A program made the position numbers and the translations under genes. A DNA stretch of 9,182 bases from a virus (lineage: Duplodnaviria; Heunggongvirae; Uroviricota; Caudoviricetes): IMG/VR virus record IMGVR_UViG_2651869781_000012; one strand, given 5' to 3'. Positions within the stretch are counted from its first letter, which is position 1; every line of letters begins with the position of its first letter. This document shows positions 3,000-9,182 of this stretch, piece by piece. The notes below the pieces were generated by a model, which was given only the letters and a program-made list of their open reading frames with translations, was not told the origin of the DNA and did no database searches.

Positions 3000-3422
3000 T
3001 TAAAACGGTATATTATCGCCGTACGGATCATCATTCCCCGACTGTTGTTTTGCCCTGTTCAGTGCGTCAGTGGCCTGCCCCTGCTGGCCTTTTTTGCCGC
3101 CCGGTCGCGCTGTTCGCGCACTGATCACGCTGTCTGCGATAACCTGCCAGCCCTGCCGCGTTTCGCCGTTCTGGCCTGTCCACTGGCTTACCTGCATGTT
3201 ACCCGCCACGCTCACCAGTTCGCCTTTGTGGTGTTTTGCCAGTGCGTCGGCCTGTCTGCCAAACGCCAGGACGGATAACCACATCATCGCCGTTCCGTCA
3301 TCTGCCTGGCTGCACGGAAGGGGGACCGCCATACTAGCCATCGCCATTTGTGTACCCTTGCTGGTGGTCTTTAACTGCGGGTCAGCCACCAGCCGTCCGT
3401 AAGCCGCTATCTGTGCTGTCAT
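3000..3422 (-). CDS. Single-stranded DNA-binding protein (SSB)-like, OB-fold with C-terminal IPF tail
   Basis: 140 aa. The N-terminus (AAYGRLVADPQL...) and core (WLSVLAFGRQADALAKHHKGELVSVAGNMQVSQWTGQNGETRQGWQVIADSV) follow the SSB OB-fold pattern. A Gly/Gln-rich linker precedes a C-terminal ...DDPYGDNIPF, reminiscent of the E. coli SSB DDDIPF tail. The ATG overlaps the upstream stop (ATGA). Confidence 0.75.
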   Translation of the reverse strand: MTAQIAAYGRLVADPQLKTTSKGTQMAMASMAVPLPCSQADDGTAMMWLSVLAFGRQADALAKHHKGELVSVAGNMQVSQWTGQNGETRQGWQVIADSVISARTARPGGKKGQQGQATDALNRAKQQSGNDDPYGDNIPF

Positions 3423-3664
3423 GCTGTCTGCTCTCCGGTTTTAACGTTGATGGTTGTCACCTGTTCCGCTTCGGCAATCTCCCGTTCTGTCAGCGTGGCA
3501 AAGTTTGCAGCTGCCGTTGTCATGAATGCGCTAATCAGTTCGGGATGTGCTTTCGCATATCCTTCCCCGGCGTTGCGGTCGATGATTTTTATCGACACCC
3601 TTAACCAGTGTTCCGTCAAATCAAGGGCGTGCGATTGTGATTTTTTTGTGTGCTTCGCTGTCAT
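3419..3664 (-). CDS. Hypothetical protein (81 aa), translationally coupled to the SSB-like gene
   Basis: ORF in the same operon orientation with a stop/start ATGA overlap at 3419-3422. No recognisable motif; the upstream SD is weak. Confidence 0.55.
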   Translation of the reverse strand: MTAKHTKKSQSHALDLTEHWLRVSIKIIDRNAGEGYAKAHPELISAFMTTAAANFATLTEREIAEAEQVTTINVKTGEQTA

Positions 3665-3707
3665 AGGCTTTATCTCACAGCAGTAAATTAAAATTTTTGC
3701 GTTTTAA

Positions 3708-3940
3708 CCCTTCACCTGTTCACCTTTTGATATTTTATCTTTTAATTCATAATGTTAAGGGGTGAACAGTTTCACAAAAACTATTCACCAACTGTTCACC
3801 ACTGTTCACCCTTGAAGCTCAATAAACAATCAAAAAGGTGAACAGTGAATAGTTTGGTGAACAGTTCATAAATAACTGTTCACCCTATAATATACTGATA
3901 TAAAAGATATTTATAACAGGGTGAACAGTGGTGAACAGTT
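3708..3940. repeat. Iteron cluster, P4-type origin-like (TGTTCACC octamers in both orientations)
   Basis: TGTTCACC at 3717-3724, 3793-3800, 3803-3810 and 3877-3884. Reverse complement GGTGAACA(G) at 3761-3769, 3837-3845, 3856-3864, 3920-3928 and 3930-3938. Degenerate copies near 3708-3716 and 3783-3789. AT-rich spacers; begins immediately after the primase stop at 3952. Confidence 0.7.
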
Positions 3941-3951
3941 ATTCCATAAGT

Positions 3952-5769
3952 TTAATTTTTGCTATCGTCATTAGTGACCGATACACATGATGGCATCCAG
4001 TCTTCTGATTCCTCCGTCAGTGTCACGTTTGAACGCAAACCGTGCTTCGTTTTCCGTTTCATATACTCCCTGCCATATTCCGCCATTGCCCCCGGCATAT
4101 CTTTACCGAAGCGCGTCAGTGTTACAGGTTTACCAAACCCATGTGCCTTCATATAAGCCAGATAGGCATGATAGAGATACCTGCGCGGGCTGAATGGCAC
4201 AATTTCAGCATTACCCACTAACAGGCCATCACACATTACCGACGCCATGAGATAGCCGCAGAAGTCCACCAGCGAATCACCTTCACGCTTTATCGCGAGT
4301 GCTTCTTCTGATTTCTGCTGCTCATATAAAAGGCGTCTGGCTTCGTCCTGGTCAGCAAACCGTGTAAGCAGATGACGAATCACTACCGCCAGCTCACCTT
4401 CTATTTTTTCCGCCAGCATTGAATCGCGTTCGTTCTCCGGTACAACTTCCGAAAAATTGAATATCACCCGACGGCGCGAGATCCCCCCACTGCGGTCACT
4501 GAATGACATAGCGTTATTGTTAACCGCCAGCACTACTGCCGGGATACGCGTTGAATATGGGGCTTTATGTTTCGGGTCGATTGCCACCTTGTCACCGCCT
4601 GTAATAGCCTTAATTCCCGCCCCATCACCAGCGTAGCGGGTCATATCCGGCATGATAATCAGCGAAAAGCCAACCACTAACGCGCGTTCCCTTGCATCTT
4701 CCAGCGCCTTCATGCTCGCTGATACTGTATTAGCCTTACCCGCCAGCATGGTGCAAATCTCCGCCATCACGCTTTTACCACTTCCCCCTGGACCTGTTAC
4801 CTCAATGAATAACTGCCAGTCGTACCGGTTCGCCAGCACCATGAATAATGCAGCCAGTACGCGATCCGCCTTGCGGTCATTCTCAGCCACCGAACGGCGT
4901 AACCACTTCCAGAAATTCGGCGCATGTGTTGCCAGCGTTTCCCCCTCTGCTGGTGGGCTGAAAGGTAATTCACTGGCAATTAACAACCAGTCGTTTTTGT
5001 TATGCTCCCGAAAATTACCTGTTCTGGTATCAAATACCCCGTTACTGAATCCAATCAGGTTACGGGCTGTATTCCCCATTACAGGCAAACTTAACTTCAT
5101 GGTATCGACCGCCGATTTAATGGCGTTCTGCGAATAGCTGATCTCCGCATCAATGAAAATCTGCGCCATAGCACGCTGTAACTCTTTATCCTGAACCGGC
5201 TCCCATACAACGCCGTTGTAATGGTGAACAGTGTCAGAGTCGGCATGAATCGCCAGTTCACCGCCATAATGTGCCAGGAGAACTTCGCCGCGTTGACTTG
5301 CTCCCATCTGGTTAAGCGCCAGTGATGAAGCGTTATCGTCTTTTACCCGCTCTTTTTTCTTTACAGGCAGTTCAACTACCTTTTTCTTTTCCGCCAGCTC
5401 TCCCCGCTCACGTTCCAGATATTCGCGCCAGTTCTCCCGTTTCTGGCTGTGCATTCCTTCAGGGTAATAATCAGCATCCCTGACACCTGCCGCTGCCAGT
5501 TTCTGCCCGATGGTATTAACAAGCCCCGGACGCAATAACCCCGCCTGGTAGAGACGCACGCGATAGCGTCCGTCCGGTACGATTTGCAGGTTGTCCAGTT
5601 CGGCAAGTTGTTGCTCTCCAAGCCAGACAGGTGGCACGTTATCGCCAGCCAGTCGCCCGTCCTGTTCCTGCCACTGCTTCGCATGTGCCCACGCATCACT
5701 ACCCGCAAAAATGATGACTTCCGTCATTTTGTCACGCGGCTGGTGTTTTAAATTTGGCGCTTTTTTCAT
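3952..5769 (-). CDS. Phage/plasmid primase-helicase, P4 alpha-like (SF3 helicase domain)
   Basis: About 605 aa. Walker A GPGGSGKS lies in the context FIEVTGPGGSGKSVMAEI, typical of P4-family primase C-terminal/D5-type helicase domains. ATG 5769 has GGAGAGAG upstream and overlaps the upstream gene stop (ATGA). The six-frame track start at 5784 is a GTG. Confidence 0.9.
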   Translation of the reverse strand: MKKAPNLKHQPRDKMTEVIIFAGSDAWAHAKQWQEQDGRLAGDNVPPVWLGEQQLAELDNLQIVPDGRYRVRLYQAGLLRPGLVNTIGQKLAAAGVRDADYYPEGMHSQKRENWREYLERERGELAEKKKVVELPVKKKERVKDDNASSLALNQMGASQRGEVLLAHYGGELAIHADSDTVHHYNGVVWEPVQDKELQRAMAQIFIDAEISYSQNAIKSAVDTMKLSLPVMGNTARNLIGFSNGVFDTRTGNFREHNKNDWLLIASELPFSPPAEGETLATHAPNFWKWLRRSVAENDRKADRVLAALFMVLANRYDWQLFIEVTGPGGSGKSVMAEICTMLAGKANTVSASMKALEDARERALVVGFSLIIMPDMTRYAGDGAGIKAITGGDKVAIDPKHKAPYSTRIPAVVLAVNNNAMSFSDRSGGISRRRVIFNFSEVVPENERDSMLAEKIEGELAVVIRHLLTRFADQDEARRLLYEQQKSEEALAIKREGDSLVDFCGYLMASVMCDGLLVGNAEIVPFSPRRYLYHAYLAYMKAHGFGKPVTLTRFGKDMPGAMAEYGREYMKRKTKHGLRSNVTLTEESEDWMPSCVSVTNDDSKN

Positions 5770-6065
5770 TTCTGCTCTCTCCACGCGGCAATCATGTTTT
5801 TCAGTTCCTGTAGTTTTTTATCCACATCCACACGTGACACATGGTTATTTCTGGAAGTCGGGATTTCCCGCCGGAATCTGCAAATAAAGATCTCCACGTT
5901 CAGCGAACTAAGAAATGAATATCCATCACGGATAAAATAAACACGGTCAAACATCAGTTCTTTTACCGTTACTCTGTTACCGTTCTTATCCAGATAAATA
6001 GCGCCGGGGATAATTTTGTGGTGTGCATAACCGCTGGCAGTCAAGCCAGATAAATATGTTCTCAT
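5766..6065 (-). CDS. Hypothetical protein (99 aa), operon member upstream of the primase
   Basis: ATG 6065 with GGGGA upstream; its stop overlaps the primase start. No recognisable motif. Confidence 0.6.
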   Translation of the reverse strand: MRTYLSGLTASGYAHHKIIPGAIYLDKNGNRVTVKELMFDRVYFIRDGYSFLSSLNVEIFICRFRREIPTSRNNHVSRVDVDKKLQELKNMIAAWREQK

Positions 6066-6071
6066 GATTAT

Positions 6072-6392
6072 TTATCCCCGATTTGAATCAGTATTCGCTT
6101 TCTTTATGGCATTTAATGCATCTGTGGCATTTTCAATGGTGCACCGTAACGAAATATCAAACTGCCCAAGCATTGCCAGTAACAAACCGATATTACCCAT
6201 ATCAATGCGCATGGCCTTTTCGTCATAGTCCTCATTTTCTGACGCATGCCACATCAGGCTACCAATTGACGCAATACCCATTGATATATTGTCAGTAGCC
6301 CCATCCGCAGCGGAATAAACCTTTTTAGCAATATCATGCTCACAGTTAAAATGCGGATTAATCAGGTACTGGTAACTGGTCATGTCAGGCAT
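6072..6392 (-). CDS. Hypothetical protein (106 aa)
   Basis: ATG 6392 is preceded by AGGGGG at 6 nt spacing and overlaps the upstream ORF stop by 8 nt. No recognisable motif. Confidence 0.6.
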   Translation of the reverse strand: MPDMTSYQYLINPHFNCEHDIAKKVYSAADGATDNISMGIASIGSLMWHASENEDYDEKAMRIDMGNIGLLLAMLGQFDISLRCTIENATDALNAIKKANTDSNRG

Positions 6393-6588
6393 GGAACACC
6401 CCCTGACGAATACGGGCAGTAAATACCATCACGCAGCCATCAGGAGATTGCTGGCGAGCTTCCTGTTCGCTGGTGGCCTCAATGTGAATCACGCGCGGTT
6501 GTGCGGTGCTCAGGGCGATAAAACGCCAGATGTATTTATTCAGGTTGTGCGAGTCCCGCCCTTGCGGGTGTGTGGTATGATTTAACAT
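6385..6588 (-). CDS. Hypothetical protein (67 aa), first gene of the primase operon
   Basis: ATG 6588 is preceded by GAGGT at 4 nt spacing. This is the C-terminal 67 codons of the 306-aa six-frame ORF, whose upstream part overlaps the plus-strand genes and promoter region and is probably not coding. Confidence 0.5.
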   Translation of the reverse strand: MLNHTTHPQGRDSHNLNKYIWRFIALSTAQPRVIHIEATSEQEARQQSPDGCVMVFTARIRQGVFHA

Positions 6589-6673
6589 AGCTACCTCGAT
6601 ACGCTTTCTATCGTTGGTGGTTAGAAGCCCTGCGAGTGGTAACGACACTTGCGGGGCTTTGCATTTATGCACC

Positions 6674-6757
6674 TTGACAACCTCAAGGTGTGGCCCACTA
6701 CATTCTTTAGGTGTGGCCCACGTCAAGAGTTTTATTTGTGCTTTTTCTGTGTATACT
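6674..6757 (+). promoter_or_regulatory. Divergent promoter/operator region with two copies of GGTGTGGCCCAC
   Basis: TTGACA at 6674-6679. Direct repeats GGTGTGGCCCAC at 6687-6698 and 6710-6721, each containing the near-palindrome GTGGCCCAC. TATACT at 6752-6757 lies about 30 bp upstream of the RHH gene ATG. The region sits between divergently oriented genes at 6588 (-) and 6788 (+). Confidence 0.4.
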
Positions 6758-6787
6758 GTCCCCCACCAATCCAACAGAGGAATAGAA

Positions 6788-6967
6788 ATGGCAACGGGTA
6801 CAACAAACGCAAAATCACAAGCTCTAAAGGCTCGTGTACCACACGAAATAGTAAACGCCATGGAATCAGTGAAAGAATCAGGCGAAAGCACATCACAATT
6901 CATCATTGCGTCAATGCAAGGCGAGATCAAACGCCGCCAGCGACGCAAAGCCAAGGAGTCAGAATAA
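6788..6967 (+). CDS. Ribbon-helix-helix (CopG/Arc-like) DNA-binding protein, 59 aa
   Basis: AGAGG at 6776-6780 precedes ATG 6788. The sequence KSQALKARVPHEIVNAMESVKESGESTSQFIIASMQGEIKRRQRR fits a beta-strand plus two helices RHH layout. Transcribed divergently from the primase operon. Confidence 0.6.
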   Translation: MATGTTNAKSQALKARVPHEIVNAMESVKESGESTSQFIIASMQGEIKRRQRRKAKESE

Positions 6968-7024
6968 TCACTATCAGCGCCGTGGTGTGAGTAACTACGG
7001 CGCATTGCTATGCAGGTGCTTACC

Positions 7025-7204
7025 ATGAACGATAAAGAGTTAAAAAAAACACCACCACAAACACTGAAAGGACAGCGCAAAAAGATAGCGCATGAGCATG
7101 AATCAGAAAGATTCGCCCCCTGTTCTTTTGCTCTTGAGAAATTCCTTAAGGAGCACAAGAAAAAGCTATCATTGCAAACCTGGGAACGAACCGAATCTGA
7201 CTGA
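7025..7204 (+). CDS. Hypothetical small lysine-rich protein (59 aa); coding status uncertain
   Basis: ATG 7025 is preceded by AGGTG (7014-7018). It lies between the RHH gene and the plus-strand terminator. Highly charged, no recognisable motif. An alternative ATG is at 7010. Confidence 0.3.
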   Translation: MNDKELKKTPPQTLKGQRKKIAHEHESERFAPCSFALEKFLKEHKKKLSLQTWERTESD

Positions 7205-7268
7205 TCAAATTGCCCACCAGCCAGCAAATCGCTATGATGTTCGGGCTTATGTTTAGTGTTTTCCCATT

Positions 7269-7297
7269 GGCGACCGCCCCCGGTCGCCTTTGTTTTA
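7269..7297 (+). terminator. Rho-independent terminator
   Basis: Stem GGCGACCG(7269-7276), loop CCCC, stem CGGTCGCC(7281-7288), then TTTGTTTT(7289-7296). It lies between convergent plus-strand genes and the alpA stop at 7316. Confidence 0.6.
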
Positions 7298-7315
7298 TAT
7301 GTCATATGCTCCCCT

Positions 7316-7525
7316 TTACGCTGCCTTACCTGAATTAATGCGATCCCGGCTTTTAACCCATTCCATAACCTCGGACAGCAGCCAACCTACAGAACGCCCC
7401 CCCAGATTAAGACGTGACGGAAAGCATCCTTTTTTCTCCAGTTCATAGCGTGTAGTGCGACACACTCCAGTTAACTTACGACATTCATCCTCACGGATTA
7501 CGCGATCTTCATTTATTTCACGCAT
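7316..7525 (-). CDS. alpA: AlpA-family transcriptional regulator
   Basis: 69 aa. LTGVCRTTRYELEKKGCFPSRLNLGGRSVGWLLSEVMEWV matches the AlpA HTH pattern. Same orientation as the integrase, with an AT-rich upstream region. Confidence 0.85.
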   Translation of the reverse strand: MREINEDRVIREDECRKLTGVCRTTRYELEKKGCFPSRLNLGGRSVGWLLSEVMEWVKSRDRINSGKAA

Positions 7526-7943: not shown

Positions 7944-9182
7944 TCAAGAATTTTGGGTGTAAATTCGCGGGGCCATAACAACGATTTTTTCATCATTGTT
8001 CTGGAGAAGCTCGAGACGGTCTACCCATAGATTAAGAGCATCACGTTTTGCATCAAGATAACGGGAGTGATTATAGACTCGTTGCATCCCCGGCATCTGG
8101 TGGGCGGTAAGCTGCTCGACAATATGCGGATCCACGCCTAAATCGTTCAGCATGGTTGTAAATGTGTGCCGGATGTCATGCAACGACCAAGGGGCTTGAT
8201 TAATGCGTCTGTGTGCCGTTCTTCCGTACTCTGATACGGATGATTGCCCTTTCAGTTCTCCAAGCAATAAGCCCGTGTGCCTGTTCTTCTCCACCAGCTT
8301 CGTGACGAACGGCAAAATGCTTTCCGGTATTGGCCTGAATATGGCGACCTTCGTTTTGCTGTGCTCCTTCGGTACTGTCCAGAGCATTTCTTTAAAATCC
8401 CACTCCTGCACCTCAGAGCGCCTTAGCTCGGTGGTACGGCATCCAAAAACAATCAGGAGGCGAATTAGGGCGCTGTAGTACGGCGGGAATATTTTGTCAT
8501 CCAGAGCGCGGAGTAATTCCCCAAGCTCCTTGTTTGTTAGTACGCGCTCGCTCACTTCTGCTTTTTTTCCCACATCACCGACAACCATATCATCAAGAAC
8601 GTTGCTGATTGCGTATCGTCGTTTTCGGCAGTACTTAAGCGCCTGTTTGCATACCTGTAGCAAAAATCCGGCAGATACCGGGCTTCGCTTTGCCATCTGG
8701 TCAAAACATGTCAACCAGTGCCGTAGCTCGCATTTTTCCAACGGCATAGCGCCAATCTGGCTGATTATGTGTTTATTGATCCGGCTTTTCAGTGATTCGT
8801 AGTCAGTGCGCTTTTCCTTTGCATACGATTCAAGCCAGTAAGTAAGCGCTTCCTTAACTGTCACGGGGGCTAACGCATCCTGTACAGCACGATTAAGCTC
8901 ATAGCGCGGATTTTTCCCCTCAGCCAGCCAGGCGCGACACTGTGCTGCTTTTTCCCTGGCTGCTTTCAGGCTCAGATCGGGATAATTGCCCAGTCTCAGA
9001 CGTTCCGGTGATACCTGCCTACCAGTTCCGGCCCTGTAAGTGAAATACCAGGTTAACAGGCCGCTGGTGGAATGTCTTACGCTAAGATTGCCACCGTCAT
9101 TAAAAAAGGCGTTTTTTGTGGTTGGTGATCCGCTTAATTTTCGTAAAAGAGTGTCGCTAAGTCTATGAATTGCGCTGCTCAT
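7944..9182 (-). CDS. int: Tyrosine recombinase / integrase, P4-type
   Basis: 412 aa. The N-terminal arm-binding-like region (DGGNLSVRHSTSGLLTWYFTYR...LGNYPDLSLKAAREKA) and C-terminal catalytic motifs (HDIRHTFTT; ...QRVYNHSRY) fit the family. The ATG is the last three bases of the window, so an upstream start cannot be excluded. Confidence 0.9.
   Translation of the reverse strand: MSSAIHRLSDTLLRKLSGSPTTKNAFFNDGGNLSVRHSTSGLLTWYFTYRAGTGRQVSPERLRLGNYPDLSLKAAREKAAQCRAWLAEGKNPRYELNRAVQDALAPVTVKEALTYWLESYAKEKRTDYESLKSRINKHIISQIGAMPLEKCELRHWLTCFDQMAKRSPVSAGFLLQVCKQALKYCRKRRYAISNVLDDMVVGDVGKKAEVSERVLTNKELGELLRALDDKIFPPYYSALIRLLIVFGCRTTELRRSEVQEWDFKEMLWTVPKEHSKTKVAIFRPIPESILPFVTKLVEKNRHTGLLLGELKGQSSVSEYGRTAHRRINQAPWSLHDIRHTFTTMLNDLGVDPHIVEQLTAHQMPGMQRVYNHSRYLDAKRDALNLWVDRLELLQNNDEKIVVMAPRIYTQNS

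Follow-up and report, generated by a model that had tools for sequence, protein, structure and literature searches.

A P4-type iteron cluster as the probable replication origin of an EcCICFT073-family phage-inducible chromosomal island

What function is served by an octamer that is repeated, in both orientations, in the gap between two genes of a Caudoviricetes sequence? The sequence is the IMG/VR virus record IMGVR_UViG_2651869781_000012, analysed here as one stretch of 9,182 nucleotides (the window), and the repeats occupy positions 3708–3940, beside a gene for a putative primase. A sequence-only reading of the window had proposed a P4-type iteron origin at this place, served by a true alpha-like initiator encoded next to it. 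From sequence comparisons, we conclude that the repeats are very probably the replication origin used by a phage-inducible chromosomal island (PICI) of the EcCICFT073 family, at which the helicase encoded just upstream would bind. As a feature it falls among the Gram-negative PICI origins, a kind already described and validated by experiment, and its iteron specificity is known from P4.

The exact octamer TGTTCACC was found 10 times in the window; dinucleotide shuffles averaged 0.36 copies and never held more than 3, and none of 200 shuffles contained 10 or more. Nine of the 10 copies fall within 3717–3937 (221 nt), four on the plus strand and five on the minus strand, and all nine extend to CTGTTCACC. 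Together with three degenerate, in-register copies, they make up 12 iterons spanning 3709–3937. The intergenic region that holds them, 3665–3951 (287 nt), has a GC content of 32%, against 47% for the window. Exact searches and the 83% AT content of the two long tracts bore out the coordinates, copy number, mixed orientation and AT-rich spacers given by the sequence-only reading, as well as its placement of the repeats directly 3′ of the "primase" gene: 14 nt separate the nearest iteron from the stop codon of that gene (3952–5769, minus strand), and the next gene is co-oriented. The elements of the cluster are as follows, with undegenerate iterons located by exact search.

3709–3716, plus strand: degenerate iteron CCTTCACC, two mismatches
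3717–3724, plus strand: iteron TGTTCACC
3725–3760, no strand: AT-rich tract 1, 36 nt, 83% AT, candidate unwinding element
3761–3768, minus strand: iteron TGTTCACC
3782–3789, plus strand: degenerate iteron TATTCACC, one mismatch, a variant also present in P4 crr
3793–3800, plus strand: iteron TGTTCACC
3803–3810, plus strand: iteron TGTTCACC, 10 nt from the copy at 3793
3837–3844, minus strand: iteron TGTTCACC
3844–3851, minus strand: degenerate iteron TATTCACT, two mismatches, overlapping the copy at 3837–3844 by 1 nt
3856–3863, minus strand: iteron TGTTCACC
3877–3884, plus strand: iteron TGTTCACC
3885–3919, no strand: AT-rich tract 2, 35 nt, 83% AT, candidate unwinding element
3920–3927, minus strand: iteron TGTTCACC
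3930–3937, minus strand: iteron TGTTCACC, 10 nt from the copy at 3920

The octamer had been identified as the P4 type I repeat, and correctly so. In GenBank, the P4 record (X51522) marks 16 "ori type 1 repeats", which lie in ori (9086–9809) and crr (4291–4590); 11 of the 16 are exactly TGTTCACC, and the remainder are one-mismatch variants that include TATTCACC. The alpha protein is described as binding to ori and crr (Ziegelin et al. 1993, EMBO J 12:3703, as cited in PMC8628076); what we say of P4 is taken from its GenBank annotation, secondary descriptions and general knowledge. The resemblance extends from the octamer to its arrangement, since the iterons of the window form two modules.

3705–3815, plus strand: origin module A (gene-distal), same layout as module B, blastn match to the P4 ori core
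3833–3945, minus strand: origin module B (gene-proximal), end-to-end alignment with module A and the P4 ori core 9301–9420, inverted-repeat pairs I1 and I2

Each module consists, in order, of two iterons, about 35 nt of AT-rich sequence, one inverted iteron, 13–14 nt, and three iterons; in module B the AT tract measures 35 nt, the gap 13 nt, and the middle one of the final three iterons is degenerate. Because this one layout is read on the plus strand in A and on the minus strand in B, the modules are mutually inverted. Both align end to end with P4 ori 9301–9420, the ori core, in which the module occurs only once, and blastn aligned window positions 3743–3815 with the P4 ori core.

The gene upstream of the cluster encodes the putative initiator. 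The maximal open reading frame (ORF) runs from a GTG at 5784 (3952–5784, 610 aa), and the RefSeq homologue in near-identical islands begins at the ATG and has 605 aa; residue numbers below follow the 610-aa ORF.

3952–5769, minus strand: initiator gene, RefSeq homologues named "DNA primase family protein", likely start ATG 5769, 605 aa
3991–4281, minus strand: C-terminal origin-binding domain, winged helix, residues 502–598, phmmer match to residues 2–99 of the PDB 1KA8 chain, E 1.4e-24
4018–4068, minus strand: variable segment EYMKRKTKHGLRSNVTL, residues 573–589, which tracks the iteron word; putative β2-wing-β3 hairpin
5434–5769, minus strand: N-terminal domain (about 112 aa) with a Toprim-like fold that lacks the acidic residues of catalysis

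Pfam searches of the initiator returned D5_N, DUF5906 (a superfamily 3, SF3, helicase family) and Pox_D5, which is the signature of SF3 helicases of the P4 alpha and poxvirus D5 type, together with a weak match to PPV_E1_C (E 2e-4), and its Walker A motif, GPGGSGKS, is conserved. BLASTP aligned the protein with P4 alpha at 48% identity over alpha residues 290–771 only, that is, over the helicase and the origin-binding domain, and its C-terminal 97 residues match 1KA8, the solved origin-binding domain of P4 alpha. The initiator half of the "true alpha-like" claim therefore stands, but the primase half probably does not: the first ~115 residues are unlike those of alpha. Neither the window protein nor its EcCICFT073 counterpart gave a Pfam match to Zn_Ribbon_Prim or Toprim_3 at E ≤ 1, whereas both families are present in P4 alpha and in a 784-aa Enterobacter homologue (L017). 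A profile comparison by hhalign of 29 short-type with 48 alpha-type N-termini aligned the linker alone and gave no N-terminal match, and only a fold search suggests a relation of the initiator N-terminus to Toprim. By our reading of the alignment, the catalytic Glu-Gly position of Toprim corresponds to Ala27-Gly28 (Ala invariant, Gly in at least 90%) and the Asp-x-Asp position to Ala81-Gly82 (each in at least 90%). As the Zn ribbon and Toprim of alpha are unmatched and the catalytic positions read Ala-Gly, "primase" is better replaced by "helicase-initiator"; the protein is probably an alpha-derived helicase-initiator with a Toprim remnant that is probably inactive.

Two observations concern the N-terminus among homologues. 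The Enterobacter hormaechei protein L017 (1649–4003, 784 aa), which has a Zn-ribbon and Toprim primase N-terminus, shares 89% identity with the window protein in the helicase core; primase domain and Toprim remnant have therefore been exchanged on nearly the same core. Homologues of about 575–602 aa (e.g., L022 and L030) have N-termini that are about 10% identical to that of the window protein in the alignment, and these may represent a third N-terminal type.

Functional evidence comes from EcCICFT073. According to Fillol-Salom et al. 2018 (ISME J, PMC6092414), the region directly 3′ of the initiator gene serves as the origin in PICIs, and the EcCICFT073 pri-ori segment maintained a temperature-sensitive plasmid at the restrictive temperature; in this assay, a pri mutant gave no colonies and deletion of ori gave significantly fewer (PMC6092414). 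Brodel et al. 2024 (Nature, PMC11338833) combined the CFT073 primase in trans with "Primase-Ori" in cis as a conditional replicon in MG1655, and their supplement prints a 279-bp origin that is sufficient in cis with the primase alone in trans. We found this printed 279-nt sequence to be the intergenic region after the CFT073 primase stop codon, with 266 of 288 positions identical to the CFT073 chromosome. The intergenic region of the window is its collinear counterpart (287 versus 288 nt, 187/288 or 65% identical), with coinciding iteron positions, a cluster that starts about 14 nt past the stop codon, and iterons arranged around AT-rich tracts. The two initiators share the same domain architecture and are 50% identical (69% in the N-terminal domain); identity of the window initiator to that of the induced element vB_KppS-Ant is 77%. 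The loci differ in the iteron, which is TGTCTACC in EcCICFT073 and EcCIIHE3034 and TGTTCACC in the window, in the wing (TRKVKGVTQTN in EcCICFT073, KRKTKHGLRSN in the window), and in the second long spacer, which in EcCICFT073 is GC-richer and contains a hairpin but in the window is AT-rich.

The genomic setting agrees with this comparison. The element is a Gram-negative PICI of about 10.5 kb, of the EcCICFT073 family, at the E. coli cspD-clpS site, as judged from a gene order and attachment (att) core that match EcCICFT073/EcCIIHE3034. Common to these islands is the order integrase, AlpA-type regulator, Icd-like gene, DUF4222 and "primase", followed, after an intergenic region of 288 nt, by a small ORF, the SSB gene and genes for a lambda-type capsid and its decoration. 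A chromosomal island of E. coli W619, with clpS and cspD as its neighbours and a copy of ATGATAGTTAT at either end, shares 97% identity with the window. This attachment core is also listed for the PICI EcCIIHE3034 (Table S1, Fillol-Salom et al. 2018, PMC6092414), which accordingly shares the cspD-clpS core of the window island. The region shows the features of a PICI origin: a position 3′ of pri in a unidirectional replication operon, 12 iterons around two 83% AT tracts, collinearity with a tested origin, and a PICI context of int, an AlpA-like gene and the att site listed for EcCIIHE3034. Of 5426 complete E. coli genomes, 594 contain the intergenic region 3665–3951 at a coverage of at least 80%, with up to six occurrences in one genome and 658 in all; in none of the E. 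coli matches listed is it covered by a RefSeq feature, and labelling it as a PICI origin would improve satellite annotation.

In P4 itself, which needs both ori and crr, the region directly 3′ of alpha is crr and not ori, and crr, too, has type 1 repeats, oriented both ways around an AT-rich tract. On this model, the cluster would be an auxiliary enhancer that binds the initiator, with a separate, true origin elsewhere on the island. We regard this as highly improbable, given that both modules align with the P4 ori core and not with the 120-nt crr repeat, that the equivalent 279-bp region of EcCICFT073 is sufficient in cis, and that no second TGTTCACC cluster with up to one mismatch was found in the window, a stretch that takes in nearly all of the island. 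Of the P4-type origin that had been proposed, the repeats are borne out, but the origin would be single and compact, made of two inverted modules like the P4 ori core, instead of being split into ori and crr.

To test how protein and site pair, we compared 85 homologous loci from about 20 genera, namely 80 fetched loci (one genome per species, out of 350 matching in GTDB) plus the window, CFT073, IHE3034, vB_KppS-Ant and P4. Almost all 85 have one 8-mer that is strongly enriched in the 450 nt 3′ of the gene, clustered within about 300 nt. For TGTTCACC, the only word counted across whole loci of about 6.5 kb, nearly all copies lie in this 3′ stretch. Iteron positions relative to the stop codon, drawn out for 25 loci, hold to within a few nucleotides; they all but coincide in classes A–C and agree more roughly in class D. 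The words are distributed as follows.

TGTTCACC: window, Klebsiella, Raoultella, Pectobacterium, Pantoea, P4, and all Xenorhabdus/Photorhabdus alpha-type genes
TGTCTACC: CFT073, E. ruysiae, Kluyvera georgiana, Enterobacter, Lelliottia, Scandinavium
TCTCCACC: Yersinia, Rahnella, Edaphovirga, Erwinia
TGTCCGCC and TGTCCACC: Serratia

The word switches (TGTTCACC, TGTCTACC, TCTCCACC, TGTCCGCC) together with a segment of 17–22 residues in the binding domain, corresponding in the window protein to residues 573–589, which we infer from winged-helix topology to form the β2-wing-β3 hairpin. In the alignment of the 85 homologues, the wing motif family predicts the downstream word in every locus with an intact frame.

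Wing KRKTKxG[IL]RSN: iteron core TTCACC
Wing RKKSTKGN[MI]RSN: iteron core TCCACC
Wings KRKQCTRGPDKGRxxSN or TRKVKGVTQTN: iteron core TCTACC
Wing KKxESKKKATRGRIQSN: iteron core GTCCGC

Two contrasts tell the most. Between the window protein and that of E. ruysiae L009, identity is 93% for the helicase core and 86% for the domain body, but only 27% for the wing (segment EYKRAKCTKGPDKGRVITNVLL in L009), and the L009 word is TGTCTACC. P4 alpha has 52% core identity to the window protein, the same wing family and the same word, TGTTCACC. Wing and word disagree only in L020, where the C-terminus carries a frameshift.

In that Pectobacterium brasiliense locus (L020:2216–3978), the frameshift lies just before the wing, and seven copies of TGTTCACC remain downstream; the locus represents either a decaying element or a sequencing error. 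Within the initiator gene of the window, the lone exact TGTTCACC outside the cluster (5223–5230, minus strand) and a one-mismatch inverted copy (5255–5262, plus strand) lie 25 nt apart, and the exact copy occurs at the same gene position in L086. This pair may be an internal binding site, or it may have arisen by chance within coding sequence that is conserved.

The covariation also bears on a role in transcription. The cluster fills the space between two co-oriented genes with no terminator between them, and initiators of iteron replicons often autoregulate through their own iterons, so the repeats could be an operator or roadblock through which the initiator, or a regulator such as AlpA, controls the downstream 81-aa gene, ssb and the capsid genes. 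As an account of the cluster this is very unlikely: neither sigma-70 promoters nor intrinsic terminators were predicted in 3300–4300, the word changes in step with the upstream helicase's binding domain and not with helix-turn-helix regulators, and the homologous region is a proven origin. Autoregulation would at most be a second role for the same sites.

Other genes of the island are as follows; the window contained no Rfam family.

252–797: small terminase, TerS
3000–3422, minus strand: island-encoded single-stranded DNA-binding protein (Pfam SSB, E 1.7e-15; TIGR00621)
3419–3664, minus strand: conserved 81-aa gene of the replication module (phrog_1231), just downstream of the origin, with a gene at the equal position in EcCICFT073 and EcCIIHE3034
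7316–7525: AlpA-like gene
7944–9182: int

Terminase-binding sites are often arrays of short repeats, and the island encodes its own TerS, which raises the idea of a packaging site (pac or cosB-like) for this small terminase. We consider it extremely unlikely. The terS gene is 3 kb away from the repeats; EcCICFT073, with the same repeat architecture, has no annotated terS and is packaged through cos; and the octamer is a known binding site of P4 alpha that covaries with the C-terminal domain of the helicase.

On the minus strand, 252–2869 encodes a lambda-type major capsid protein (E), a head decoration protein (D), a second AlpA-family helix-turn-helix protein and the small terminase, with no portal or protease, and is therefore a partial head module typical of EcCICFT073-type PICIs. 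The 306-aa ORF at 6385–7305 (minus strand) has probably been extended too far: only its residues ~224–305 match known families (Icd-like, repressor), and RefSeq has at this place only a 67-aa Icd-like gene and, upstream of that gene, one for YlcI/YnfO in the opposite orientation.

The plasmid database PLSDB contains a 10,790-bp circle, pZ1323HEC0475-3, in which the att core occurs exactly once; the initiator is the same and the origin 99% identical. Its integrase protein is the same as that of the W619 island, and its head module is different. The circle fits an excised PICI and an extrachromosomal existence.

Several points weigh against an origin read in this way. The functional data were obtained on a homologue that has another iteron word and an initiator with 50% identity. 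The circle pZ1323HEC0475-3 could be an assembly of excision products and not a stably replicating episome. The wing was assigned from topology, and a single-sequence AlphaFold model of the origin-binding domain alone reached a predicted local distance difference test score (pLDDT) of only 37. The covariation of word and wing ignores phylogeny, and the switches, in four to five classes, include few that are independent. Two unlike wings (the CFT073-type VKGVTQTN and the L009-type GPDKGRxxSN) share the TCTACC core, so the wing alone is not a simple code. With these points taken into account, we still favour, with high confidence, a replication origin bound by the helicase encoded just upstream.

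At such an origin, the SF3 helicase would bind the twelve (C)TGTTCACC sites through its C-terminal winged-helix domain, as P4 and the covariation suggest. By analogy with SV40 T antigen and papillomavirus E1, each module may nucleate one helicase hexamer, the two facing in opposite directions, and the duplex would presumably melt at the two 83% AT tracts. The outcome would be bidirectional theta replication of the excised circle. Priming would most likely fall to the host DnaG, because the Zn ribbon and the catalytic Toprim residues have been lost and because in the CFT073 system just one island protein is supplied, a "primase" with the same architecture. The island SSB, encoded just downstream, may coat the unwound strands. 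According to the literature on the PICI family, the replication operon would be switched on only after helper-phage induction, via AlpA, so that the origin would be silent when integrated.

More tentatively, and with considerable doubt on our side, the interchangeable 8-mers and wings on a conserved scaffold might constitute a specificity or incompatibility code. Since the island shares both the word and the wing family of P4, it might then be cross-activated by, or compete for, a co-resident P4-like alpha. Were the code real, several satellites could replicate in one cell without cross-firing; were cross-activation real, there would be functional cross-talk between two satellite families with different helper phages. 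At least four iteron words on one scaffold, each with its own wing variant, offer candidate orthogonal initiator/origin pairs for conditional replicons such as phage-delivered gene editors already employ (cf. PMC11338833), and the word and wing classes offer a tractable system for how winged-helix wings read DNA. For the PICI "primase", a helicase-initiator with an apparently dead Toprim would change the biochemistry to be expected.

Among known systems, P4 resembles the window in the identical octamer, the TATTCACC variant, the ori-core module, the SF3 helicase with a winged-helix origin-binding domain, and the wing family. It differs in having a split origin, with ori (9.1–9.8 kb) and crr (4.3–4.6 kb) 4.5 kb apart, whereas the window has two inverted modules within 240 nt; its crr lies directly 3′ of alpha with a terminator between them, and no terminator was predicted in the window. 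The P4 type 2 repeats (three tandem CCACTTAAAG) gave only chance-level matches in the window and none in the origin region. No homologue of Cnr (DUF5375) was found, both small ORFs upstream of the initiator being dissimilar to P4 ORF106, and sid, psu and delta were not seen among the window ORFs scanned. The window island instead encodes lambda-type capsid E, decoration D and TerS. P4 alpha, for its part, has an N-terminal Zn ribbon and a catalytic Toprim primase that are unmatched in the window protein. A full-text literature search for the octamer returned unrelated primer sequences only.

More distant systems are alike in plan. Staphylococcus aureus pathogenicity islands (SaPIs), likened here by description, have their origins at the same position relative to the initiator gene, with sets of iterons around an AT-rich melting region (as stated in PMC6092414); their iterons are unrelated, and the relation is one of working alike and not of membership. 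SV40 large T antigen and papillomavirus E1 likewise pair an SF3 helicase with a separate origin-binding domain and have inverted sites flanked by AT-rich DNA. Their origin-binding fold is another one than the winged helix of the window protein and their hosts are different, so the likeness is an analogy only; it suggests head-to-head loading of a double hexamer. The closest family is the Gram-negative PICI origin, and not P4 itself.
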